Shown here: positions 2,760 through 52,456 of the stretch, piece after piece | Position numbering within the stretch: position 1 is the first letter of the stretch | Layout of the letters: each line of letters starts with the position of its first letter | NCBI GenBank assembly: GCA_048569615.1 | Contig: JBLIRK010000001.1 | Coordinates: 18,896 to 82,895, forward strand | Length of the DNA: 64,000 bases | Direction: 5' to 3' | From: Thermoplasmatota archaeon | GTDB taxonomy: Archaea; Thermoplasmatota; Penumbrarchaeia; Penumbrarchaeales; Penumbrarchaeaceae | The notes under the pieces: model-generated | What the model saw: the letters and a program-made list of their open reading frames with translations, nothing else | Database searches by the model: none | What the model was told of the DNA's origin: nothing | Position numbers and translations under genes: made by a program

Positions 2760-3173
2760 TCATTTCTTCTTGATGGATATCCGCTTCTCTTCCTTTGTGG
2801 GGGCCACCTTGAAATACGATCTGTGAAAGTTTCTCTGCTTGAACGACTGAAGGGCCCTGTAAACAATGTCCTCTCCGGTCAATCCGGGATTCTGGGAATC
2901 TATGTAATCGAAGGAAAGGTGCGCAAGGCCCGTCCTCAGATAAGCAGTGAGCTTTTCCTGCGATGCCCCTTTCTTGTGAAGGATCATGAGCCAGTCCCGG
3001 AGCTTCTTCTCTCCTTTCTTGAAGTTCTCATCCGAAAGCTTTCCCCCGTAGCGCCTCATGTAGCTGTTGAGCATCGAATGAACCGTACTGTAATCACCTT
3101 TGAACTGCTTCGGAAGGACACCGTCGCTGATCAAACGATCGTCAAGCCTTGCAACTATCCTGGTATCTGCCAA
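2760..3173 (-). CDS. Hypothetical basic protein (137 aa)
   Basis: Intact ORF with no recognisable motif. It converges on the regulator gene with only 2 nt between the stop codons. Confidence 0.35.
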   Translation of the reverse strand: MADTRIVARLDDRLISDGVLPKQFKGDYSTVHSMLNSYMRRYGGKLSDENFKKGEKKLRDWLMILHKKGASQEKLTAYLRTGLAHLSFDYIDSQNPGLTGEDIVYRALQSFKQRNFHRSYFKVAPTKEEKRISIKKK

Positions 3174-3273
3174 AAAGGAACCCCCGTTTTCAGAATAATG
3201 ATGTTATTTAATTTATTGGTTTTGCAGGTCTCCATCAAGTTTATTTATCTTGGACCAATGGTCCCGTGATACC

Positions 3274-11363: not shown

Positions 11364-12652
11364 TCAAGGACAGGAAAGTGATGGCCCGGAAGTGGAAGGT
11401 TAACCTTGCCATCGCATCGGTCCTGGCATTTTCGATCTATCTGGGTTTCGGTCTAATTCTCCCACTGTTCCCTCTGTATGTGGAGCTGCTGGGGGGTGGA
11501 GGGCTCGAGATCGGTCTCCTCCTTGCATCCTTCATGTTCACCAGGGCCTTCCTGGCAAGGCCCTTCGGGAGGCTATCGGACCGGATCGGGAGGAAGAAGG
11601 TCATCGTCACAGGGATGTTCCTCTATGCTATTCTGGCCTACCTGTTTACGATCCCAACCCAGTGGTGGGGGCTGTTCTTCGTCAGGATCATGCAGGGGAC
11701 AGCCTCCGCAATGGTCTGGCCTGTTGGGGAAGCCCTTGTAGTTGACTCTGCACCTCCGGAAAAGAGGTCCAGGGCCATATCAACATACATCTTCCTGACC
11801 AACCTCGGGATCGTAGCCGGTCCTCTTCTGGGCGGATTGATCCTGTTCCTATCGCAGAACGTTATGGGCTGGTCGCTTCTGACATCGTACAAGACTCCGT
11901 TCTACTTCACCAGCGGCATCTCCCTAGTTGGAGCGCTCATCGGGCTTTTCTTCCTGAAGGATGTGCTCTCCAAGGTCAAGGATGTCAAGGCCATGAGGCA
12001 AAAAGAAAGGGAGGCACTCTCGAAGTTGAAACCCTGGATGAGGAGGTCGCTTAACATGCTCTTCATGAACTCCTTCTTCGAGGGATTCTCTTGGTCGATG
12101 GCTTCTGTCGTAGCGGTCCTGTTCATGGCCCTCAACTTCGGAATGGACGCAACACAGTTCTCTATCCTTTTCGGAGTCGCCCAGGGTCTGGGTCTTCTCG
12201 TTATCGTTCCCTCCGGGGTGCTTTCGGATAAGGTGAGGAAGAAACCCTTCGTGGTTCACGGAAGCCTGTGGTCCAGGATCTCCACCATCATCCTTGCGTT
12301 CTCCCCGCTGATGCCCATAGGAGTATGGATCGCAGTCCTCACCTATTCGGGGAAGGAGGTGGGCAGACAGGTGGCTCAGCCGGCCACCAGGGCTCTGCAG
12401 GCGGACCTCTCACCTGTGAGGATAAGGGGCAGGCTCATCGGTACCATACAGGCCTTCTCGAACATCGGAGCGGTCCTTGGACCCATACTCGGTGGTTATA
12501 TATGGGACCTTACGAAGAACAGGTATTTCGATGTCTATATATTGGACCTCCCCGGCTACTCGATCCCGTTCCTCATATCTGCGCTCATGGGAATAATCGC
12601 GGCCCTTCTGGTGCTGAGATACGTTATCGAGCCTAAAAAGAGAGTTGGTTAA
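11360..12652 (+). CDS. Major facilitator superfamily transporter (12 TM)
   Basis: Twelve hydrophobic segments. MFS loop 2-3 motif GRLSDRIGRKKV, and a second-half motif near ..LSDKVRKKP. Gene overlaps the upstream gene by 4 nt. Confidence 0.8.
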   Translation: MIKDRKVMARKWKVNLAIASVLAFSIYLGFGLILPLFPLYVELLGGGGLEIGLLLASFMFTRAFLARPFGRLSDRIGRKKVIVTGMFLYAILAYLFTIPTQWWGLFFVRIMQGTASAMVWPVGEALVVDSAPPEKRSRAISTYIFLTNLGIVAGPLLGGLILFLSQNVMGWSLLTSYKTPFYFTSGISLVGALIGLFFLKDVLSKVKDVKAMRQKEREALSKLKPWMRRSLNMLFMNSFFEGFSWSMASVVAVLFMALNFGMDATQFSILFGVAQGLGLLVIVPSGVLSDKVRKKPFVVHGSLWSRISTIILAFSPLMPIGVWIAVLTYSGKEVGRQVAQPATRALQADLSPVRIRGRLIGTIQAFSNIGAVLGPILGGYIWDLTKNRYFDVYILDLPGYSIPFLISALMGIIAALLVLRYVIEPKKRVG

Positions 12653-12836
12653 GAAAAGGGCCCTATGGAACAGATCTTCCATTCATTCGTTCCCGTGCTC
12701 CCCGGTAAGCAAGAAATTTATCATCCTAAGTCCTTTCCTCATTTGGACGAAGTTGGCAATCAAATTTACCTGATTAGTAGAATAATCATTTCATAGATTT
12801 TAAAACGATGAAGCGATGGAATTATATGTATATCTT

Positions 12837-12857
12837 TACCATGGTGTTACCATGGTG
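12837..12857 (+). promoter_or_regulatory. Putative operator: tandem direct repeat TACCATGGTG-T-TACCATGGTG, each unit holding a CCATGG palindrome, just upstream of the RHH antitoxin start
   Basis: Exact 10-nt repeat seen in the sequence at 12837-12846 and 12848-12857. An AT-rich TATATGTATATC (12824-12835) lies about 30 nt upstream of the GTG start at 12863. Confidence 0.4.
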
Positions 12858-12862
12858 ATACG

Positions 12863-13102
12863 GTGACATCAATAAATGTGAAGATCACCCAAAGAATGGA
12901 TGATAGGATCGATGAATTCCTTGAAACTCACCCATACTATATGAATAAAAGTGAAATGGTCCGAGATGCAATCAGGCATCTGATCGAAGATGAAAGCAGG
13001 CTTTCCACAGAAACCATCAAGGTCATTGAGAAAGGTAAAGAACAGGTGGAGAAGGGCAAGGGTAGAACCTTGGAAGAAGTGGAGCTGGAACTGAATGACT
13101 GA
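12863..13102 (+). CDS. Ribbon-helix-helix (CopG/RelB-like) antitoxin
   Basis: N-terminal beta-strand INVKITQRMDDRIDEF, then two helices (MNKSEMVRDAIRHLIED). Overlaps the downstream toxin gene by 8 nt. GTG start. Confidence 0.65.
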   Translation: MTSINVKITQRMDDRIDEFLETHPYYMNKSEMVRDAIRHLIEDESRLSTETIKVIEKGKEQVEKGKGRTLEEVELELND

Positions 13103-13351
13103 AATCCTATTCACTGATCCGGCCTTCGATCAATTCAAAGGATTAGAGAAGGACGTTAGGAAAAGAATTTCGTCTAAATTGAAGGAAATAAAAGGATGGC
13201 CTGACCATCATCTCAAACCCTTGAAAGGAGTTCCGTATTTTAGTCTTAGGATAGGAGATTACCGAGCGATCATTGATTGGAGAAAAGATAGAGATGAACT
13301 ATGAGTGGTCGCAGTGGGCCATCGAAGGAACATCTACGAAAGAGAGCTTTG
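13095..13351 (+). pseudogene. relE: RelE/ParE-family toxin interrupted by an in-frame TGA at 13302-13304. The 69-aa product lacks the conserved C-terminal ..V(L/V)AVGHRxxIYE segment, which sits in-frame just after the stop.
   Basis: The ..KPLKGVPYFSLRIGDYRAIIDWRKDRDEL* reading frame continues as VVAVGHRRNIYEREL*. This matches the canonical RelE C-terminus carrying the catalytic Arg/Tyr. Confidence 0.6.
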
Positions 13352-13430
13352 AAAAAGAACTCTTCCGGAAAAACGATCTAACTAGCAAAAGATGTTCAAA
13401 AAGGGATTGGAATAAAAGTCCAGGTAAGAT

Positions 13431-14024
13431 TTGCTGAAAAAACAGGTTTTAAAAAACCGCCCCTTTTGGACCATTCATTCGAAATGGATATATAATTGCT
13501 GCCTTCTGGGTTTTATCATGGCCATTGATACCTGGTGGATCGCCTCGGAGCTCATGATGGTCGCAGCACTGGTCATCTTCCTTGTCGCCATGTTCATGAT
13601 ACCCTCCAAAGACAAGGTCAGATCGAGGGAGGCGGGAACCGGGCCGAGCAGGGCTGTTCCGTACCTCATCATCGGGACCTTCTTCTTCCTTGTACTTATG
13701 GGGATCTTTGCCTTCTTGATGGTAAAGGACTACTGGGTCGTTCTTGTCACCGACGCCATACTCATCGTAAGCGCGGGCATGGTCTCCATCGACTACTACA
13801 CGACCCGAAGGCTTTTCAGGTCCATGGGGCACGAGATTCACCACAATGTCGAGGTCGCCCATGGTCACGTACATCCTCAGCATAATCACCATCATGGGCA
13901 CATTTACCCGCATCAGGCAGGCACCATGACAGTGGAATGTCCGCAGTGCGGGGGCCACATAACGATCCCCGAAGGGTCGCATCAGATCACATGCCCATAC
14001 TGCGGAATATCAGGCACCATATGA
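13431..14024 (+). CDS. Membrane protein (4 TM) with a His-rich segment and a C-terminal cytoplasmic zinc ribbon
   Basis: TM helices, then HNVEVAHGHVHPQHNHHHGHIYPHQ, then CPQCGG..(16 aa)..CPYCG. Confidence 0.5.
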   Translation: MLKKQVLKNRPFWTIHSKWIYNCCLLGFIMAIDTWWIASELMMVAALVIFLVAMFMIPSKDKVRSREAGTGPSRAVPYLIIGTFFFLVLMGIFAFLMVKDYWVVLVTDAILIVSAGMVSIDYYTTRRLFRSMGHEIHHNVEVAHGHVHPQHNHHHGHIYPHQAGTMTVECPQCGGHITIPEGSHQITCPYCGISGTI

Positions 14025-14027
14025 ATT

Positions 14028-17000
14028 CTAAAGGGGATTCTTGCAGTCGGGACAGAGGAACCATCCTTTCTTCACCCTGGAGCCGCAGGTCGGACATGTC
14101 GTTTCCTGCGGTTCCGGCTCGGGGGCGGACCTCTTAGGGGGAAGATGCTCCCTCCTTTCCTCCCTGGAAGCGGAAAGGGATGCCGCATGCCCTCCAGGAT
14201 GCAATCCATGCCTTTCTCCCCCGCCAAGATGGTGGGTCCGGTCCTCATCGTAATATTCCTCCTCCGCGGGCTTGGCCCTCCTCCTGAACACGAAGAAGAG
14301 TATTGCCGCGAGCAGTATGATCAAAGCAATGACCACCAGTACGACGTACAATCCAATGTTCCCTCCAGAGCCGTTATCGTCATCATCATCGCCAATCTTC
14401 GGCTCCTCGTATTTCTGAAGGGTGAATGTAACTTTCACCTCATCGGATCGTCCGTAGTCGTCCTGCAGCCAGACAGTGACGTTCTTCATGCCGTAGGAAT
14501 CGAAGGTGTAGTTGAGGTCCCACCCTGTCTCCTCCCCCTCATCATCCATCTGCCAGTGGCATGCATAGCGCTCCCCGAAGAAGTTCAGCTTGGGCTCCTG
14601 CCACAGGTGAACGCGCAGACCCTCGATCTTCATCGGGGTCACGGAATGGTCGTCGTAGAGCGAGAACTGCGGGTCCGGCCCGGGGACCGGGAAATCCTCG
14701 GGTTTCAGGATGATATCAACGGATGCAGAGGCGGTGTTCCCGCCCGAATCCATGACCTCTATGACGATCCTTATCGTCACCTCATCCGGGTATGTCTCCC
14801 TCCAGATCAATGGGTCCCGGATTTCGAACCTCAGCTCCCCCGTGTCGAGGTTGAAGGTCCAGTCCGTTCCCTCAACAAGGCCAGCAAAGGGAAGCTGATC
14901 GACAATAGGATCGGTCTCCCCGTCGATCTCGTCCTCCATATTGCAGCGGAATGATAACGTCTCGTCGGGGTCAATATCCCTCGCTATCGGCCTGATAACG
15001 ATGGTATCACCCTGGAAGAACTCCTCGTCGATCTCCGGGAATTCTATGGTGGGATCATCCTGGGCGTTCTCCAAGGATATTAAGACCTCAAGGCGGACCT
15101 TTCCGTCGAAACCCCCGTCATCGATCTCGAATACCATCTTCTCCCTGCCGTTCTTGACATCGTCGTTGGTAGGGGTCATCGTTGCATATCCGGTATTAAC
15201 ATCGACCTCCGGATCCTTATCCCAATTATCTCCGCCGTAATATGTGAATGCCAACGGCTGCTTCTCCGCCTCCGTTTCGGGGTCCTCGGCATCGATCTCG
15301 AGTTCGAACTGCTCATCCTCCACGGCGAAGACCTTGTCGATAAGGTCTAGCTTGAGCAGATATGGGTCCTTATTTTCGGGAACGTAGTTCTTGCCGTCTA
15401 TGATCACCTTCAGGACGATAGGGGGATCGTTCTCGGGCTCCACCACGATCTCCTCCGTTGTCTCCGCAAAGGAATGCGCATCAAATCCCCTGAGCCTTAT
15501 CTCCTCGTTCCCGTTCTGGTTCGGTTTTGGAGTTATAAGAGCGTTCCATCCCCCACCGTTGACCTTCTTGATATCTATATGGAGCAATTCGGTGTCTGAC
15601 GAGCTGTACCAATCGTTCCTGCTCTCATTCCATATCTGGAAACCCACGAAGGATAGCTCGTTGTCCCTGAACATGCCTCCTCCGGAGTGGTATTCCAGAG
15701 GGATGTAAACGGTAGGTTCATCCTCGCCGATGGGCTCGATCCCCGGATAGTTGTCATCGACATAGACCGGCTCGTCGTTCCAGACCTCGAAGGCGTCATT
15801 TACATCGATGGGTCCGGTCCATCTCATAGTGCGTATGGAATTTACTGGGATAGTATCCGAAGCGTTGAACCTTATGTCATGCGGAGAGTACTGCTCACCT
15901 ATGTCCTCGCCGAGGGCGGAATAGCTGTAAACCTTGCCGTCCGTGAAATCGTCATCCCCGGTGTCAGCCTCGTACTGGATCATGTCTATGACCTTCATGG
16001 AAAGGGTATCCGGATCGATCAGGAGCTCAAGGAGCTTCGGGGGGTCGTTGTCGGCGTCCGTATAGGTGACATTGATGGTGAACTCGGTCCCGTAATGGCC
16101 TCCAGTCTCGTCATCCGGCCAGTCGGAGCTAACTTCGATATCCGAAAGGGTGGGCGGATTGTTCGGGAGCTCCTCGATAACGTTGACATCCACTGTGTAC
16201 TCGGACCAGCAGGTCCAGAAGGGATAATAGGACTGTGTAGGCACCCCATCCTCCACCTGGTACGTGGCGGGTTCCGCCAACAGCCCGAGATAAGCTTCCC
16301 TTTCGTTCGATTCGGGATATATGCTCTTCAGGCGGTAGCCCAACGTCTGGTTCTCGTTGGCGACGAAGATGCCCCCCGCAATGAAGAAGCTTAGGATGTG
16401 GTGGTAGTAGTACCACAGGTCATCATCGTTGTTCCAGATGCCGTCATCCCCCGCGTCCCTCCATACGAAGAAAACATGGAGCCAGTCATCCCATCTCCTG
16501 CCGTTCAGCGAATCGCCGGAATAAAAACCCTGCCCGTCGGTCCTATTGATGCGAACCGTGATGTTCCACAGCTTGGTGGGATCCGAACCTCCGATCCTGT
16601 ACCAATCAACAGGCTGGTAAGTCGAATGTATGTATTTCTCCCCGAGAGGAATCACCGTTGTGGCAGTTTCCCTCGTATTGGAGGCGCTATCGGTATCCTG
16701 GGTCTGCCTCGTATCGATCTCCAGGGAGTACTTCATAGTGAATGCTCCCCTTGAAGGAGCCCCTTGCCTGGTGTAAGAATTGAAGGATATGGCGACATAG
16801 TACCAACCTATCTCGGTGAGTCCGTTGGCCCACCCGTCCGGGTCCTCATCGCCAACGGAGTTCTCGGGGGTGACGAAATTGAAGCTCCAGTTATCCCTGT
16901 AGGTCCATCCGTCCCCATCGTCGTGATCGTCGAAGGATGATTCCATCCCGCCCATGTTGACAACCTGCCCCCAGGGATCTATGAATATCACGGAAAGATA

Positions 17001-17612
17001 GATCAGATCCGCATGATCGACGGTCATATTCCCCCCTTCATCGGTCTCCAGCTCGTAGAGCCCTGTGTACAGATCATTGCCGTCGGTGAGGTCGTTTATG
17101 GTCAGGGATACATTGTGAACCCCTCCAGGAGCATTGGCGGTCTCGTCGATGTCGTTCAGGGAGAACTTGAACCAGTCCCTGATATCGCTTGTACCGGCCG
17201 GATCGTAGTTCAGCGTTCCGTCGATGACCTCGACGGCGTTTGTCATCTTGGAGCCGTTTGGGAAATCGTGAATGTCCCGCTCCTTCTCCTCGTCGGAGGC
17301 CCTTGTCCTTTCATCTTCCATTTCCAGGACCGAGTAGCATCCGGACGGAGCCTCCCTCATGGAGATGCCCTTCACTCCGGTGCTCCTTACACCTTCGGAG
17401 AACAGTGCTCCCCTCTCTTGTTTCACGATCTCGGAAAGAACAACGGACTCCCCGGGTGAGAGGGCAAACAGACCGGGATTCGTACCGTCGGGAATTGACG
17501 AATCATCCGATCTTTCAACTTCAATATCCGGCCCTCTTCCTGTAGCAACAGCCGTTAAGCCCGGCACAATAAGAAGCAAAGCAGCCAAGAAGAACTTCAT
17601 TTTAGATTTCAT
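14028..17612 (-). CDS. Very large (1194 aa) secreted surface protein with a C-terminal TM anchor and an ~90-aa cytoplasmic tail ending in a zinc ribbon
   Basis: Signal peptide MKSKMKFFLAALLLIVPGLTAVATG. Acidic ectodomain rich in D/N/T/W. TM LYVVLVVIALIILLAAILFFVF, then RRRAKP... and CPTCGSRVKKGWFLCPDCKNPL. Confidence 0.6.
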   Translation of the reverse strand: MKSKMKFFLAALLLIVPGLTAVATGRGPDIEVERSDDSSIPDGTNPGLFALSPGESVVLSEIVKQERGALFSEGVRSTGVKGISMREAPSGCYSVLEMEDERTRASDEEKERDIHDFPNGSKMTNAVEVIDGTLNYDPAGTSDIRDWFKFSLNDIDETANAPGGVHNVSLTINDLTDGNDLYTGLYELETDEGGNMTVDHADLIYLSVIFIDPWGQVVNMGGMESSFDDHDDGDGWTYRDNWSFNFVTPENSVGDEDPDGWANGLTEIGWYYVAISFNSYTRQGAPSRGAFTMKYSLEIDTRQTQDTDSASNTRETATTVIPLGEKYIHSTYQPVDWYRIGGSDPTKLWNITVRINRTDGQGFYSGDSLNGRRWDDWLHVFFVWRDAGDDGIWNNDDDLWYYYHHILSFFIAGGIFVANENQTLGYRLKSIYPESNEREAYLGLLAEPATYQVEDGVPTQSYYPFWTCWSEYTVDVNVIEELPNNPPTLSDIEVSSDWPDDETGGHYGTEFTINVTYTDADNDPPKLLELLIDPDTLSMKVIDMIQYEADTGDDDFTDGKVYSYSALGEDIGEQYSPHDIRFNASDTIPVNSIRTMRWTGPIDVNDAFEVWNDEPVYVDDNYPGIEPIGEDEPTVYIPLEYHSGGGMFRDNELSFVGFQIWNESRNDWYSSSDTELLHIDIKKVNGGGWNALITPKPNQNGNEEIRLRGFDAHSFAETTEEIVVEPENDPPIVLKVIIDGKNYVPENKDPYLLKLDLIDKVFAVEDEQFELEIDAEDPETEAEKQPLAFTYYGGDNWDKDPEVDVNTGYATMTPTNDDVKNGREKMVFEIDDGGFDGKVRLEVLISLENAQDDPTIEFPEIDEEFFQGDTIVIRPIARDIDPDETLSFRCNMEDEIDGETDPIVDQLPFAGLVEGTDWTFNLDTGELRFEIRDPLIWRETYPDEVTIRIVIEVMDSGGNTASASVDIILKPEDFPVPGPDPQFSLYDDHSVTPMKIEGLRVHLWQEPKLNFFGERYACHWQMDDEGEETGWDLNYTFDSYGMKNVTVWLQDDYGRSDEVKVTFTLQKYEEPKIGDDDDDNGSGGNIGLYVVLVVIALIILLAAILFFVFRRRAKPAEEEYYDEDRTHHLGGGERHGLHPGGHAASLSASREERREHLPPKRSAPEPEPQETTCPTCGSRVKKGWFLCPDCKNPL

Positions 17613-18135: not shown

Positions 18136-19419
18136 CTATTCCGATGGGGTTTCCCCGCTATCAGTACGGTCCTTGAAATCGACCTCCTTTTCGATTACGA
18201 AGGATCCTATGTAGTCGCACCTCTTGCAGTGATAGACATATCCAGTTATGAAACCAGACTCGTAATAGAGTTCGGTACCACCGCATTCGGGGCATTGATG
18301 CACTATCATCCTGCCGGAGCCTCCGGGCATATTTTCCAGCTGTGCGCCGATCTCCTCAGCCTCTTCCCTGCCGATGAGGTCGCGTCCCCTGGTGAGGCCG
18401 GGTTTATGTCCCTTCTCGATCTCCTCGGTTTCGGCCCTCCTCATACTTGACACTGTGATCTTGGATAGCTCGAAGTAGAGCTTTCCCAGATCCTCCTCCG
18501 GCCCGAACAGTACTATATCCCTGTTCTCGTCATTGATGATCATGGCCGGCTCATCCCGGCCGATCTTGAAATAGACCACGGCCGCAGCAAATAATGTGAT
18601 CATGGCGACGACGGCTCCAATGAAGAGGTCGAGCTGTGTGTTGGTATGGTAGTATTCAGGACCCCACTCGATCTTGATCCTGTGCTCCCCGGCGGCAATT
18701 CCGTCGGGCAGCCTTATAATGATCCTGCACCCCTTGTCGTTCACGCTTTCTCCGCTCTGCATGTTCCTGGCATCGCCCAGCTCCATTCTGTCCAGCAGGA
18801 TATCATAGGATGTCTTTCCGGTGTTAAAATCCTTGACGGTTAATGAAAAGCTCTCCCTTTCCGCCACCTTTCTCTGGTCATCCAGCACCACCATCTCGAC
18901 GTACCTGACAGTATGTCTGCTCCCGGAATCGAAGGTGATCCTGAGATGGCTGATGCCCTTGATCTTCAATTCATTCGCATCTCCCATCCACATTATGTTC
19001 AGGTCCAGACTCCGGGGGATGCTCTCCTCGATGGAGATAACGTCCCAGTAATCCTCGGCGTTGTATTCAACGCTGTTTTCCAGGTTAATATAATTCGAGC
19101 TTCCGGAGAATAAATATATCGGCGATAGGGGAGCTCCGGTTTCGTTTACGAAGGGTCTGAGATTATTCTGAGAGAGCTCCAGATAGGGGTCCGATTCGTC
19201 CTCGCTTCCGAAGAGGTATTGAACCGCAGCGAACAGGACCACCCCGGCCATGATGATGACAAACAGTATTATTATGACCTTGAGTGTCGGCATCCTCCTC
19301 CTCTTTCCCAGAGTGGCCCCCCTAACCCTGACCTCCTCACCGTCCAGAAGGAATCTTTTTCCCTTCAGCCGGACCTTCACTTCCCTGTCCTCCCTGATAA
19401 GGTCCATCTCGATCTTCAT
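18136..19419 (-). CDS. Bitopic or polytopic membrane protein with an extracellular middle domain and a C-terminal cytoplasmic zinc ribbon
   Basis: TMs VIIILFVIIMAGVVLFAAVQYLF and LFIGAVVAMITLFAAAVVYF. C-terminus HQCPECGGTELYYESGFITGYVYHCKRCDY. Start overlaps the upstream LarC-like gene by 4 nt. Confidence 0.5.
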   Translation of the reverse strand: MKIEMDLIREDREVKVRLKGKRFLLDGEEVRVRGATLGKRRRMPTLKVIIILFVIIMAGVVLFAAVQYLFGSEDESDPYLELSQNNLRPFVNETGAPLSPIYLFSGSSNYINLENSVEYNAEDYWDVISIEESIPRSLDLNIMWMGDANELKIKGISHLRITFDSGSRHTVRYVEMVVLDDQRKVAERESFSLTVKDFNTGKTSYDILLDRMELGDARNMQSGESVNDKGCRIIIRLPDGIAAGEHRIKIEWGPEYYHTNTQLDLFIGAVVAMITLFAAAVVYFKIGRDEPAMIINDENRDIVLFGPEEDLGKLYFELSKITVSSMRRAETEEIEKGHKPGLTRGRDLIGREEAEEIGAQLENMPGGSGRMIVHQCPECGGTELYYESGFITGYVYHCKRCDYIGSFVIEKEVDFKDRTDSGETPSE

Positions 19420-20192
19420 CTATCGCCCACCTCGTATATTGCTAGGGTATTGGAGAAACCACCGTCGTAGACGCGACTCCCGGCTCCGGACCCGACCCTC
19501 CTCCAGGTATCGGGAATCGTGCCCGGAACCTCGCCTTCCTGCAGCCATATCTCGACAAGGGTGTTTACCGCCGCCATTCCAGTGGGTGTTGCGAGTTCGC
19601 CCTCGACCGGGCCGGTCCTCCATGTCACGGACCTCAGCATGTGCCTTACCGCGGGAACAGGTATGTCGTAGATGCCGTGGGCGGTCGTGATCACACCCTT
19701 TCCCAGGGAAACTGGAGTGGCTTTCACCCAGTATCCGTCCACCTCGAGATCGTCGCAGAATTTGGCGATCCCGAGAACGTCAACCAGGGTGTCGGGGGTT
19801 CCAGCCTCGTGCAAGTGGACATCCCGAATTGAGGCCTCGTTGTGTACCGCAGCCTCGGCCTCCAGAATGTTCATGAGCATCCTTCTTGAAAGCCTCCTCG
19901 TCCTGTCGTTGAGGTCCATGATTTCCATACCCTTCTCCAGGTAACCGAGCATCTCGCTGCCGCTGCAGGTCCGTTTTTCCAGTTCGTCCCATTCTACATG
20001 GAGTTTTCTGGCAACTATACCGTTCCTGGAATCCGTATGAGCAACGATCCTCGTGGGGCTCTGGACCGACGCGGCCTCCTCAAGTATCTTGATATTCTCT
20101 TTCCCAACGGTGGACCTCATCGACCAGTCGACCAGGGCGGAAAGGAGCATGTCCCCCGAAACGCCGCAGCGGAGGTCGAAGAACAGGTCCAT
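19416..20192 (-). CDS. larC: LarC N-terminal domain (DUF111/UPF0272) homologue, a nickel-insertion (CTP-dependent) protein of the nickel-pincer cofactor pathway, covering the N-domain only
   Basis: Signature N-terminus MDLFFDLRCGVSGDMLLSALVD (GxSGDMxLxAL). Its 258 aa corresponds to the LarC1 portion. No LarC2-like domain is adjacent. Confidence 0.55.
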   Translation of the reverse strand: MDLFFDLRCGVSGDMLLSALVDWSMRSTVGKENIKILEEAASVQSPTRIVAHTDSRNGIVARKLHVEWDELEKRTCSGSEMLGYLEKGMEIMDLNDRTRRLSRRMLMNILEAEAAVHNEASIRDVHLHEAGTPDTLVDVLGIAKFCDDLEVDGYWVKATPVSLGKGVITTAHGIYDIPVPAVRHMLRSVTWRTGPVEGELATPTGMAAVNTLVEIWLQEGEVPGTIPDTWRRVGSGAGSRVYDGGFSNTLAIYEVGDR

Positions 20193-43671: not shown

Positions 43672-45867
<2,196 letters not shown>

Positions 45868-48531
45868 TTACTGCACCTCCCTCACTGCCATGCTTATGAT
45901 GTCATCGTAGTCGATTGGATCGGAACGAACGGACCTTGTCGGGTCCACACCATCCTCCCCGTACATGAACTGGACCACAACCCCGCTTGTGTTGCGGACG
46001 GTCCTGTCCGGCAGGACCTTCAGGTCCTCGAGGGCGTTGATCAGCCTCCTCTGCATGTAACCCGACCTGCTTGTCCTGACGGCTGTGTCCACAAGTCCCT
46101 CCCTTCCACCCATAGAGTGGAAGAAATATTCGGTGGGTGTCAGACCCTTCTTGTAGCAGGATTTGACGAAGCCCTTGGCTGCAGCGCCAAGATCGTCCGG
46201 TTTGAAATGGGGTAGGGTTCTCTTTTGATATCCCCTATGGATCCTCTCACCCCTGACTGCCTGTTGCCCGATGGACCCGGACATCTGCGAGAGGTTCAGC
46301 ATTGAGCCCCTTGCTCCGGACCTCGCCATGATGACGGCCGAGTTCTTCAGTCCGAGATACTTGGAAGCGATCTGCCCTGCAGTGTCCCTGGCCCTACCCA
46401 GTGTCCTCATGGCCTCCACTTCAAGGGTTTCCTTCAGGGACCTTCCAGGAAGCGATTCAAGGAAGCCGGAATTGTATTTCTTAACATAGTCGTCCACCCT
46501 GGCCTCGGCATCGTCCAGTGTTTCCGCGATCCTGAGTTTCGCCTCCTCGGGAATATCCTCCTCGTCTATGCCCGTGGAGAATCCGAGGACCATGATGGAG
46601 GCTATTCCCATCCTGGTGGCGTCATCCAGGAACTGCCGTCCCCTGTCAGTGCCGTGGTCCCTCACGATCTTCTCGAGCAGTTTTCCCTTGAAGGCCCCGA
46701 TGGACTTCTCGTCTATTGGGCCCGTGACCAGAACGGACCTTCCCTCATCATCTGTATCGATCCTGACCCAGGAATCCTCCTTCGGATCGTCATCCGGACC
46801 ACCGTAGATCGCCGATGGATATTCAAGATGAAGCCCGGGGGGTAGTATCATGGAGAAGATGGTCTTGCCTCCCCAGAAAGGCACGCCGTTCCCTGAAACC
46901 TCATCCGGATCGGGCAGGGCTCCCTGGAAAGAGGTCCGTGACAGCATGTGGTATGCCTGCTCCCTGGTGAACATCGGGTTCTTGTGGGTGAGCAGGAATA
47001 CTCCCGAAATGTGATCGTGTATCGCCCCTATGACGGGACCGCCGAACCTGGGGGAGAGGATGTGCTCCTGCACCCTCATTATTATCTTGGCCTCGGCCCT
47101 GGCCTCCTCTCCCTGCAGGCAGTGGAGGTTCATCTCATCACCGTCGAAATCCGCGTTGTAGGGTGGACAGTCGGGAAGGTTCAACCTGAAGGTCTTTCCT
47201 CCCATGACCCTGACCTCATGGGCCATCATTGACATCCTGTGGAGGGAGGGCTGCCTGTTGAATAGGACTATGTCACCGTCCATCAGATGCCTTTCCACAA
47301 CAAAACCGACCTGCACCTTCTCCACGAGGGTATCCTTGTTCCTGTCGGTGATCCTGAGCCTCTGACCGTCGGGCCTGATGATGTAATTGGCTCCCGGATG
47401 CACCTCTGGACCCCTGAGGACGAAGTTCTTTGCGATCTCGTAATTGAACTCGTTGACCCTTATGGGAACGGTGAGCTCCATGGCGATGGGCATCGGAACA
47501 CCGACCTCGTTTATGGATATGTAGGGATCCGGAGAGATAACGGTCCTTGCTGAGAAGTTGACCCTCTTCCCAGAGAGGTTCGATCTGAACCTCCCCTCCT
47601 TGCCCTTGAGCCTCTGGGCCAGGGTTTTAAGGGGCCTTCCGGATCTGTGTCTGGCCGGGGGTATGCCCGAGGTCTGGTTGTCGAAATAAGTGGTAACATG
47701 GTATTGAAGGAGCTCCCAGAGGTCCTCAACGATAAGCTGGGGAGCGCCGGAATCCCTGTTCTCCTGGAGGCGCTGGTTTATCCTGAGCACATCCACGAGC
47801 TTGTGTGTGAGGTCGTCCTCGGAGCGGTCCCCCGATTCGAGGGTTATCGATGGCCTGACAGTGACAGGAGGAACCGGAAGGGATGTCAGTATCATCCATT
47901 CCGGCCGGGCGACCTCGGGATTCAAACCAAGCAGCGGGAGGTGATCGTCGGGTATCCTCTCGAGCCTCTCGCGAATCTCCTTGGGTGTCAGCTTATGTCC
48001 TTCCTCCCTGAAGGTCGTCGGTTTGTCCAGGGTGATGTTTTTGGTCATCTCACCGCAGTCGGGGTGGGGGCACTGCTGAATCCCCATCGCGTCGGTCCTC
48101 ATGGAGGTGGATATGGCCTGGAAAGGGAAGGGATTCAAGGCTATTTCGCCGATTTCCCTCAATTTCTGTGAGTATTCCTTGATCTTGTCAGTCGGGAGTT
48201 TTATCCTTCCGCAGGTCCTGCATGTTGCCGAGAGCAGCTCCTTGATGAGCTTCGTGTAGCCCTCGTGGATCACCGGCATGGCAAGATCGATATGTCCGAA
48301 ATGCCCCGGACATTCATCGACCTTCCTCCCGCAGGTCTTGCACTTAAGCCCTGGCTCTATGACCCCGAGCCTCGGGTCCATGAGGCCCATATCTATGGGG
48401 AACCCATCATCATCGTATGTATCCGCCGTGATTATCTTTGTGGCGGACATCTTCCTTATCTCTTCGGGGGAAAGCAGGGCGAACTGTATCTTTCCGATCT
48501 TCTTTGGTATGTACTGGTAGCTTACCATCAT
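45868..48531 (-). CDS. rpoA1: DNA-directed RNA polymerase subunit A' (Rpo1N)
   Basis: Zinc ribbon CKTCGRKVDECPGHFGHIDL. ..NADFDGDEMN.. catalytic motif. Start set at MMVSYQYIPKK just after the rpoB stop. Confidence 0.93.
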   Translation of the reverse strand: MMVSYQYIPKKIGKIQFALLSPEEIRKMSATKIITADTYDDDGFPIDMGLMDPRLGVIEPGLKCKTCGRKVDECPGHFGHIDLAMPVIHEGYTKLIKELLSATCRTCGRIKLPTDKIKEYSQKLREIGEIALNPFPFQAISTSMRTDAMGIQQCPHPDCGEMTKNITLDKPTTFREEGHKLTPKEIRERLERIPDDHLPLLGLNPEVARPEWMILTSLPVPPVTVRPSITLESGDRSEDDLTHKLVDVLRINQRLQENRDSGAPQLIVEDLWELLQYHVTTYFDNQTSGIPPARHRSGRPLKTLAQRLKGKEGRFRSNLSGKRVNFSARTVISPDPYISINEVGVPMPIAMELTVPIRVNEFNYEIAKNFVLRGPEVHPGANYIIRPDGQRLRITDRNKDTLVEKVQVGFVVERHLMDGDIVLFNRQPSLHRMSMMAHEVRVMGGKTFRLNLPDCPPYNADFDGDEMNLHCLQGEEARAEAKIIMRVQEHILSPRFGGPVIGAIHDHISGVFLLTHKNPMFTREQAYHMLSRTSFQGALPDPDEVSGNGVPFWGGKTIFSMILPPGLHLEYPSAIYGGPDDDPKEDSWVRIDTDDEGRSVLVTGPIDEKSIGAFKGKLLEKIVRDHGTDRGRQFLDDATRMGIASIMVLGFSTGIDEEDIPEEAKLRIAETLDDAEARVDDYVKKYNSGFLESLPGRSLKETLEVEAMRTLGRARDTAGQIASKYLGLKNSAVIMARSGARGSMLNLSQMSGSIGQQAVRGERIHRGYQKRTLPHFKPDDLGAAAKGFVKSCYKKGLTPTEYFFHSMGGREGLVDTAVRTSRSGYMQRRLINALEDLKVLPDRTVRNTSGVVVQFMYGEDGVDPTRSVRSDPIDYDDIISMAVREVQ

Positions 48532-48539
48532 CTCACCCC

Positions 48540-51500
48540 CTAACGCAGGTCCTCCAGGTGCAGCCTCATGGCGACGCACATCGACTTCAACTCGTCCATT
48601 AGCAGCTTGAATGCATAGCTTGTCTGGACGGGATGGATGTTCCCCGTTTCACCGCATACGGGGCATCTGAGGGCTCCCCTCTTGTCCAGCATCGCAACGT
48701 TGCCGCATTTGGGATTGCCGCAGACGAACTCTATGGTCCCATCCGATTCGTCAAGCAACCTGTCCTTGATAACCATTGATACACCATGGGCTATCAGACA
48801 ATCCCTTTCCATCTCACCGAATCTCAGACCTCCCTGTCTTGACCGTCCCTCGGTCGGCTGCCTCGTGAGGATCTGTACCGGACCCCTCGATCTCACATGC
48901 ATCTTGCCCGAGACCATGTGGTGCAGCTTCTGGTAGTAGATGACCCCCTTGAAGATCTCGGCACGCAGCTTTTCCCCGGTGAAGGGATTGTACATCACTT
49001 CCTTGCCTGTCGGCTTGAAACCTACCTCGAGAAGCTGCTTCCTTATCCTATCTTCGGGCTCCCCTGAGAAGGCAGTCCCGTCTATGGTCCTTCCCTGCAT
49101 CGAACCGACCTTCCCGCCGATCATCTCCAATACATGGGCAACGGTCATACGGGATGGAATGGCGTGGGGATTTGTAACGAGGTCCGGAATTATCCCCTCC
49201 TCATTGAACGGCATGTCCTCCGGATCGGCGATCAATCCGATGACACCCTTCTGACCATGCCTGGAGGCGAACTTGTCACCGACCTCGGGTATCTTCTCAC
49301 TCCTGACCGTGACCTTCACCAGCCTCAGACCGTTCTCCGATTCTGTTATCATCACGGTATCCACATAGCCGGATTCCCGCGGTCTGACGGTGAGGGAGGT
49401 CTCCCTCCTCCTTCTCGGTGTCAGGAAGTCCGTGTGCTCCTCGAGGAACCTGGGTGGAGATGTCCTGCCTATGAGCACATCCTTCCCCAGGACCTCGAAC
49501 TCGGGCGAGATTATGCCGTCCTCGTCCAGGTTGTTGTAGGCTTCCTCGGACCTGGAGCCCATGACGTCGGGAGCGGGGATCTCGATCCTGTCCTCCTGAC
49601 CTCCTGGATACCTCCTCTCCTCTACGGGATAGGACCTTATGAAGGTGGACCTGCCCAGACCTCTGTCGATGGATGCCCTGTTAAAGATCAGCGCATCCTC
49701 CATGTTGTATCCCTCGAAGGAGAGCACTGCCACGACGAAGTTCTGACCTCCGGGCCTCTTATTGAAATTTACGAAATCCATGGTCTTCGTCTGCACCAGG
49801 GGCCTCTGGGGATAGTGGAGCAGATGTGCTCTTGTGTCGCACCTTATCCTGTAGTTTGAGGCTCCGAGACCAAGTGACTGCTTTGCCATTCCAGCTCCCA
49901 TGGTGATCCTGGGAGAGGAGTTGTGGTGCGGGTAGCAGACGAGCCCTGAACAGGTTCCGAGAATTACCATGGGATCGATCTCCATGTGCGTATGCTCGGT
50001 TGTAACGTGACCCTCGTCCACGGCAATGAAGAGGTCCTCCTCCTCCTCCGCATCGATCCATTCGATGATGCCCTGCTGGATCAGGTCCTCCCAGTTTATC
50101 TTTCCCTCGTTGAGTGAGGCCCTCATCCTATCAGTGATCTTTGTCTGGCCTTTATCCATGACGAACAGAGGCCTTCTGACCCTGCCGTCGTCGCAGTTTA
50201 TTATGACCGAATTTATCTGGGAATTGAATCTGACGTTTATCTCGTGGGACTTCTCCTGCGGCATTGCGAGGAAGCCCTGTCTCCTCCTTCTCCTTACGGA
50301 TTCCACAAGTCCCTGGGGGTCATGATGGATCCCAATTAGATTGCCATTGAGGTAAACCCTTGCTTCGTCGGTCAGCTCCTTTTCGATCCTCCTAACGCCC
50401 ATGTCGAAGAGGGTGGATTCGAGCTTTCTCTCGTCGTATCCCTCAGATATGTCCACAATGAGGGCGAGGTTCTTCACGAGACCGCAGTTCTGACCCTCGG
50501 GTGTCTCGTTGGGGCAGAGCCTTCCCCACTGCGTGGGATGGAGGTCCCTAGCCTCGAAATGGGGCTGGGACCTGGTCAGTGGAGATGTGATCCTTCGAAG
50601 GTGAGATATGGTGGACATATTGCACGTCCTGTCCAGAAGCTGGGAAACACCGTCCCTTCCCCCGACCCAGTTTCCCGTGGCCAGGGCATGGATTATCCTC
50701 TGTGAGAGAACGTCTGGACGGATGGCCGATCCCACCCTCAGCTTTCTCTTCCTGGTTATGGTCCTCTCCAACTGATACTTTAGGTCCTTCATCAACGAGG
50801 TAAAAGCAACCCGGAACAGGTCCTCCATCAGGTCGCCAGCAAGGGAGATCCTCTTGTTTGCATAGTGGTCCTTGTCGTCGGGATCCCTCTGGCCAAGCTT
50901 AAGCTCAAGGACCGACCTTGCTATCCTCCCCAGGTAGATGGCCTTCTTGATCCTCTGGTCCCTGTGGTCACCCAGGTGAGGGAGCAGGGACTTGTCGATT
51001 ATCGATTCCACCTTCTTCTCCCTGAATTCCTTCGCCTGTCCCGTTGCGAACTTCTTCTCCAGGTAGTTCAATGCATCCTCGATGGTGTTCACACCGTATG
51101 TCGCCGAGCATTCCTCGAGATTTGCGAAGATGACATTGTTCATCCTCTCATCCGAGACAATGGCCTTGGCAATGTCCTCGTCCGCATCCATCCCCAGTGC
51201 CTTCATAAGGATTACCAAAGGTATCTGGGTGGGGGCCGCCGGAACGGAGACCATCAATATCCCGTCCTTCTTGAGCTCAACCGAGGTCAGGGCCCTGAAG
51301 CCCTCCCTCTGGGAGAATACCTTGGCCACCGCCATGGGTGTTCCGTATTTCTCTTCCCACTCGACGAGGACCCTGTTTGGTGAGAGGTCCTCCAACGATA
51401 TTAGGGAGCGCTCAGTCCCGTTGATTATGAAATAGCCGCCGGGATCAAGGGGGTCCTCACCCATCTCCTGGAGCTTTCTGTAGTACTGGTCGTCGGTAAG

Positions 51501-52339: not shown

Positions 52340-52456
52340 TGGCGGGTCCGAGGGGATTCGAACCCCCGGCCATCTGGTTAAAAGCCAGACGCTCTTTCTA
52401 GGGAAGATGGCGGACACTAAACCACCATTCAACCTACCTAGCTGAGCTACGGACCC
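52340..52456 (-). tRNA. tRNA-Lys (anticodon UUU) with an encoded CCA and a putative ~40-nt non-canonical intron in the D-arm
   Basis: Minus strand: GGGTCCG-TA-GCTC-AGCTAGGTA-[40 nt]-GAGC-G-TCTGG-CTTTTAA-CCAGA-TGGCC-GGGGG-TTCGAAT-CCCCT-CGGACCC-G-CCA. The acceptor and anticodon stems pair perfectly. Intron coordinates are about 52395..52434. Confidence 0.6.

Follow-up and report, generated by a model that had tools for sequence, protein, structure and literature searches.

A premature TGA at a conserved tryptophan codon in the toxin gene of an archaeal relBE-type toxin-antitoxin cassette

What becomes of a toxin-antitoxin (TA) locus when the toxin reading frame carries a stop codon ahead of its last fifteen codons? 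The question is raised by a pair of overlapping genes on the forward strand of the window, the whole 64,000-nucleotide stretch of a Thermoplasmatota archaeon contig that was analyzed here. The original prediction read the in-frame TGA in the second gene as a single nonsense mutation that disarmed a RelE/ParE toxin and left its antitoxin in place. The analysis supports this reading; the homologues have TGG at the site, and the stop removes the catalytic C-terminus. The locus is, with a probability of roughly three in four, a horizontally acquired relBE-type type II TA cassette in which the toxin was recently killed by the mutation W70* and an orphan antitoxin remains. It is a new example of a well-known route of TA decay and not a new kind of event.

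The two genes have the adjacent, co-oriented and overlapping architecture of a TA module, and this architecture is conserved. The antitoxin gene (12863..13102, + strand) consists of 79 codons with a GTG start and a TGA stop. The ATG of the toxin at 13095 overlaps the 3' end of the antitoxin by 8 nt, ATGACTGA, an overlap that is invariant in the homologues. The truncated RelE-type toxin ORF (13095..13304, +) consists of 69 codons that end in IGDYRAIIDWRKDRDEL (...DWRKDRDEL) and the premature TGA at codon 70 (13302..13304, +); the coordinates and the frame of this break are those first claimed for it. A further 15 in-frame codons, VVAVGHRRNIYEREL, follow and lead to a second TGA at 13349-13351, the original stop. 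In this untranslated 3' remnant (13305..13351, +) lie the codons for most of strand beta4 and for the G75-H76-R77 / I80-Y81 motif of the toxin. A functional type II TA module has both genes intact; here the toxin is interrupted at codon 70.

The ancestral codon could be read from the homologues. In the protein alignment, Trp is present at position 70 in every homologue with at least 62% identity. In the DNA alignment, five homologous loci out of five have TGG opposite the TGA of the window, and thus the lesion is a single G>A transition, TGG>TGA, that produces W70*. The same five loci stop, with TGA or TAA, exactly at the second TGA of the window. The closest homologues (protein P0002 and loci L001, L003 and L004) end in a 15-residue tail of exactly the same protein sequence. 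This identity, together with the gain in Pfam score when the tail is included (below), shows that the tail is not a chance open frame. Among the about 170 homologues listed, which are 80-96 residues long, none shares the stop at codon 70 and none ends naturally at ...DRDEL. Metagenome DNA scans for the allele of the window, with A or G accepted at the lesion, and for any TGA followed by VVAVGHRRNIY were empty, and exact-protein look-ups of the truncated toxin, the antitoxin and the adjoining MFS transporter found no record.

The first protein search with the toxin returned 56 homologues, nearly all of them exactly 85 residues long and the closest 88-89% identical. At E<=1e-8 the family comprises 4459 clusters in a profile search; the best 120 of these are all 82-96 residues long with coverage of 96-100%, that is, full-length, a view that is blind to truncated relatives. 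Alignment to intact RelE homologues, as originally proposed, places the stop at the conserved Trp with the C-terminal segment missing. Against the Pfam family PF05016, which has a gathering cutoff of 23 bits, the 69 residues as encoded score 17.3 bits over profile positions 1-71 of 89 and the product does not qualify as a whole protein, whereas the 85 residues with the stop read through score 32.2 bits over positions 1-89 of 89. The toxin gene is a member of the RelE/ParE superfamily (PF05016) by descent, and its product is a fragment.

The fold was assessed on P0002, an intact protein of equal length (counting the stop as read through) that is 88% identical to the window toxin. Its AF2 model has a pLDDT of 93.6. 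The strands are beta1 (residues 3-6), beta2 (49-53), beta3 (56-63) and beta4 (68-76), and the helices are Helix 1 (8-15), Helix 2 (19-31) and Helix 3 (36-39), giving the RelE-type order beta1, alpha1, alpha2, (alpha3), beta2, beta3, beta4. The window product ends at residue 69, inside beta4. When the PDB was searched with this model using Foldseek, the top eight matches were RelE proteins. The best RelE matches include 2KHE (TM 0.87), followed by 9G12, 4FXE, 3BPQ and, further down, 1WMI; M. tuberculosis RelE1 and RelE2 are also among them. ParE proteins appeared from rank 26. Since the best structural matches are RelE and ParE ranks lower, the toxin gene is a RelE-type member of the superfamily.

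The segment beyond the stop contains two invariant residues, G75 and R77, and three with at least 90% conservation, H76, I80 and Y81. The catalytic Arg/Arg/Tyr triad of E. coli RelE consists of R61, R81 and Y87. In the phmmer alignment R57 of the window corresponds to R61 and R77 to R81, and Y81 matches Y87 through an 'IY' vs 'VY' motif with a 2-residue indel; the alignment to 2KHE also extends to Y81. R77 and Y81 lie after the stop and are not translated, which bears out the claim that the conserved Arg and Tyr follow the stop, and R57 is the only member of the triad that is translated. In E. coli RelE, the single mutations R61A, R81A and Y87A lower the cleavage efficiency (Neubauer et al., PMC2807027), and when R81 and Y87 are mutated together mRNA cleavage is almost abolished (PMC2807027). 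With a core strand and R77/Y81 lost, the toxin should be disarmed, and we infer from these residues that the W70* product is no longer toxic.

The antitoxin ORF aligns without gaps to the 79-residue homologues and is therefore intact. Its omega is 0.038 vs L004. Its family is less sharply defined. The RHH_1 profile matches at 19.7 bits vs a cutoff of 20.5, and four of seven homologues also match below threshold. The ParD model TIGR02606 matches with an E-value of 9.6e-6 and 25.6 bits vs a cutoff of 46.2, the antitoxin profile also matches NikR N-terminal domains at a sub-threshold level, the PDB profile search was not significant, and single-sequence AF2 gave an all-helix model of low confidence. 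The antitoxin is probably a ribbon-helix-helix protein of ParD/CopG-like type. The original statement that the RHH antitoxin is intact holds as to intactness; the RHH label comes from sub-threshold matches only.

The upstream region retains what appear to be control elements of the operon. A TATA-like box, TTATATGTATAT (12822..12833, +), recognized by reading the sequence, is centered about 35 nt 5' of the antitoxin start codon and is the putative operon promoter. An A/T-rich box is present at equal distance from the start in L001, L002, L004 and L005. A scan with a bacterial promoter/terminator model, which is not suited to an archaeon, gave nothing above background. The interval from the TATA-like box to the start codon contains two tandem copies of an 11-nt repeat, TTACCATGGTG (12836-12846 and 12847-12857, +), each with one palindrome, ACCATGGT (12838-12845 and 12849-12856, +), as expected of a palindromic operator at the promoter of a type II TA module. 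The window shares both palindromes with L001 and L002, at positions -25 and -14 relative to the start codon. L004 and L005 keep the first copy and have ACCAAGGT as the second, and L006-L008 have the variants ACTATAGT or ACTATGGT. The repeat pair as a whole is unchanged between the window, L001 and L002, and the other relatives have near-identical or variant copies, even though synonymous sites in the coding region are near saturation (dS at least 0.87). The repeats at 12836-12857 are intact and are probably the operator of the antitoxin, to which binding is predicted.

Promoter, operator, antitoxin and toxin together form a conserved unit. The blastn homology to the eight loci L001-L008 delimits a TA cassette at 12812..13352 (+); individual alignments start at 12812-12849 (12947 in L003) and stop at 13341-13366, and the flanks beyond the cassette are unrelated in every one of these loci. 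The GC content is 39-41% at 12500-13500 vs 53-57% in the flanks, and this low-GC island, which consists of the TA cassette and its intergenic flanks, suggests horizontal acquisition. One relative of the cassette resides on a Haloarcula plasmid. The TA module is a small mobile cassette. A search of the 64-kb window for another toxin or antitoxin gene as a possible partner of the orphan antitoxin found none. In one of the relatives, L003 (240-503), the toxin is intact, and the first approximately 28 codons of the antitoxin and the promoter are replaced by unrelated sequence.

The genes downstream of the cassette have features of their own. Two convergent ORFs without a Pfam match occupy 13431-17612. 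One, of 197 aa, is a membrane protein with a CxxC...CxxC zinc-ribbon motif at its end; the other, of 1194 aa, is a very acidic surface protein that ends in a transmembrane segment and CxxC...CxxC. Further on, at 18136-20192 (-), a LarC/Ni_insertion-like ORF of 258 aa matches profile positions 1-230 of 375 only and is followed by an overlapping ORF of 427 aa without a Pfam match; the two may be a split or divergent LarC.

How old is the lesion? Over the toxin gene, omega is 0.065 vs the nearest DNA relatives, and 0.034 between two intact genes. The 15 post-stop codons differ from those of L003 and L004 by 6 synonymous and 0 non-synonymous changes, and from those of L001 by 9 synonymous and 0 non-synonymous changes. 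No second lesion was found in the toxin ORF of the window. With 6-9 synonymous and no non-synonymous differences in the tail the lesion appears young, and continued selection on the tail would fit equally. Either W70* is very recent relative to the divergence from the known relatives, or the tail is still selected.

Lesions of related toxins were sought with an HMM scan of the six-frame translations of 134 sequences, which yielded 136 full-span toxin matches. Five of these contain an internal stop. In addition to the TGA at W70 in the window, a Thermoplasmatota MAG (L007) has TGA at 3103-3105 and a Methanobacteriota MAG (L021) has TGA at 495-497, replacing the conserved Trp residues W35 and W62, respectively, in ORFs that are otherwise intact. 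The fourth, from Methanosarcinales (L085), is a TAG at about 3190-3192 at a non-Trp position. Inspection at the codon level covered L007, L021 and L085. The Methanosarcinales order uses pyrrolysine, and this in-frame TAG could be a nonsense lesion or a Pyl codon. The fifth is a TAG in a viral contig (L130); the relatives on viral contigs are all distant, with 39% identity or less, and are of little use for a tally of Trp codons. A different lesion is seen in the toxin P0031 from two JGI samples (L134 644-913 and L135 755-1024). Residues 1-69 are kept (...RDQL) and are followed by 20 unrelated codons, so that the 3' end is replaced from codon 70, the same codon at which the window has its stop. 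DUF1670 genes lie downstream of the toxin in these two loci. L007, L021 and L134/L135 all retain an unbroken antitoxin ORF upstream of the toxin, and toxin loss with retention of the antitoxin is therefore recurrent.

The internal stops are also an argument for the most probable of the alternatives, a leaky stop. The UGA at the Trp codon would occasionally be read by near-cognate tRNA-Trp, and a low dose of wild-type toxin would be made; the toxin would be down-tuned. Three of the five internal stops are TGA, each at a different Trp codon (W70, W35, W62) of an ORF that is otherwise intact, and in the archaeal loci such stops make up three of four nonsense events, which is above the expectation of simple mutation models. 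These models expect 7-26% of the nonsense events per gene to be W>TGA, and for all three events the product of these probabilities is 0.0003-0.012. In addition, neither the window nor L007 shows relaxed constraint in the codons after the stop. However, the test is post hoc with very few events, and the window itself triggered the idea; without it, for 2/2 or 2/3 events, p is about 0.01-0.2 depending on transition bias, by a hand calculation from the model probabilities. G>A at TGG is among the likeliest paths to a nonsense codon. The codon-70 stop is private to the window among the homologues listed and in the metagenome scan described above. RNA folding 3' of the premature stop is not significant (z -1.84), the tRNA-Trp gene is not in the window, and the intact tail is no less expected of a young pseudogene. 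Given a hypothesis formed post hoc on tiny numbers, and a likely mutational path, leaky UGA is retained as an unlikely explanation.

A broader form of this idea applies to the whole subfamily, in which TGG>TGA at Trp codons would be a recurrent and selectable way to turn the toxin down through leaky UGA, not a plain knockout. With tRNA-Trp reading UGA as a near-cognate codon, small amounts of toxin with exactly the wild-type sequence would be restored, and the stop would act as a dosage valve. This would explain why three independent lineages have TGA at three different Trp codons, why no second lesion accompanies any of them and why the codons beyond the stop still appear constrained. It is a speculative proposal that we consider improbable.

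A sequencing or assembly error is less probable still. The true base at 13304 would then be G and the toxin would be intact. The difference is a single base in an otherwise perfectly conserved ORF, tail and cassette, and the allele is known from one assembly, no second copy of the strain having been found. Against this, substitution errors in a consensus are rare compared with real toxin lesions, of which there are at least three others in about 135 loci from independent studies, and nothing else looks broken among the genes checked in the 64-kb window.

A split toxin is very improbable. In this case translation would re-initiate at the GTG at 13305, and the resulting 15-residue peptide would complement the 69-residue fragment. 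The codon after the stop is indeed GTG, a possible start, where the homologues have GTA, GTT or GTC, and termination-reinitiation coupling is known in archaea (PMC6728339). But GTG is just one of four Val codons, the break inside beta4 is a poor site for fragment complementation, and the arrangement is without precedent in the family of this toxin.

Recoding of the TGA, whether as Trp throughout the genome (code 4-like) or as selenocysteine, is suggested by its position exactly on a conserved Trp codon and can be rejected, since TGA terminates both the antitoxin and the toxin exactly where the proteins of the homologues end and closes 64 of the 108 long ORFs in the window, more than any other stop codon, the homologues have Trp at the site and not Cys or Sec, and the Rfam search of the window returned no SECIS element. 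TGA functions as an ordinary stop here. The stop usage and gene ends exclude a reassigned code, in agreement with the original view of recoding as much the less likely option. Programmed readthrough, or a selenoprotein, was likewise rejected, with no codon-70 stop among the homologues listed, an empty metagenome scan, no SECIS element and no notable 3' structure. Among the adjacent same-frame ORF pairs of the window that one stop separates, two pairs split by TGA were compared with Pfam, and no family spans the stop in either.

A suppressor tRNA was also considered and rejected; ARAGORN finds no tRNA, and the sole tRNA that Rfam finds in the window is a tRNA-Lys(UUU), which is not a suppressor. 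This tRNA-Lys(UUU) (52340-52456, -) has an encoded CCA end and an Rfam score of 35.9 bits, and was missed by ARAGORN. Its D-loop region carries about 40 extra nt, possibly an archaeal intron of non-canonical type. The window is archaeal, encoding ABCE1/RLI and the split RNA polymerase subunits A' and A''. The polymerase region (43672-48648, -) is itself unusual. A' (926 aa) is followed directly by a same-frame open segment for A'' that is unusually long (731 aa), and the Rpb1_5 match in this segment is stretched and begins no earlier than residue 348, pointing to an inserted sequence or an extended N-terminus.

The preferred reading, recent death of the toxin by W70* in an acquired cassette, gives the following picture. 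A single G>A transition turned the TGG at codon 70 into TGA. Translation ends inside beta4 and yields a 69-residue product that lacks most of this strand and the C-terminal GHR...IY motif; without them it is expected to misfold and to be unable to cleave mRNA on the ribosome. The lesion leaves the antitoxin gene, the overlap of the two genes and the promoter/operator intact, and the locus would now express an orphan antitoxin that presumably binds its operator and regulates itself. The orphan may be heading for loss, or it may still neutralize related incoming toxins in an anti-addiction role.

The locus is a clean and datable case of the usual course of TA decay, in which decay starts with the toxin while the antitoxin and operator persist, and it comes from an archaeal lineage in which few such TA systems have been examined so far. 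For annotation, the toxin is a pseudogene and the antitoxin an orphan. Wider interest attaches only to the small and unproven excess of TGA at Trp codons; if it is true, leaky UGA would be a dosage valve for the toxin.

Among known systems, E. coli RelBE (RelE; PDB 4FXE, 4V7J/4V7K) resembles the window module in toxin fold (Foldseek TM 0.75-0.79) and in its bicistronic operon with the antitoxin first. The sequence match to E. coli RelE is weak (E 0.014), with R57/R77 aligned to R61/R81. The identity is only about 20%, however, and K52 and K54 are not conserved. The C-terminus of the window toxin is shorter and without helix alpha4, its origin is archaeal, and it is cut at codon 70 with R77 and Y81 untranslated. 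T. thermophilus RelE (2KHE) is the best structural match, with 29% identity at a TM of 0.87, and M. jannaschii 3BPQ and the P. horikoshii aRelE-aRelB complex 1WMI hold structural ranks 4 and 11. All three, like the window toxin with its stop read through, are small toxins, about 85-90 residues in length, that carry a basic/aromatic motif at the C-terminus. Unlike the archaeal RelBE toxins and 2KHE, the window toxin belongs to a distinct subfamily, LRIGDYR...GHRRNIY, which is widespread in Thermoplasmatota, haloarchaea, DPANN and Methanosarcinales. The antitoxin, in contrast to aRelB, looks ParD/CopG-like.

The closest parallels to the lesion itself are bacterial. Loss of the toxin with retention of the antitoxin has been reviewed in bacteria, and the degraded TA loci with orphan antitoxins include a Caulobacter parE pseudogene that leaves an orphan ParD and a Shigella YacB with a premature stop (PMC7354431). 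The window locus differs from these in its archaeal host, in the toxin subfamily, in the nonsense mutation at a Trp codon and in the absence of further decay. As in the Caulobacter and Shigella loci, the toxin was killed by a point lesion with the antitoxin intact, and the same outcomes are possible: a remnant, a regulator or an anti-addiction module.
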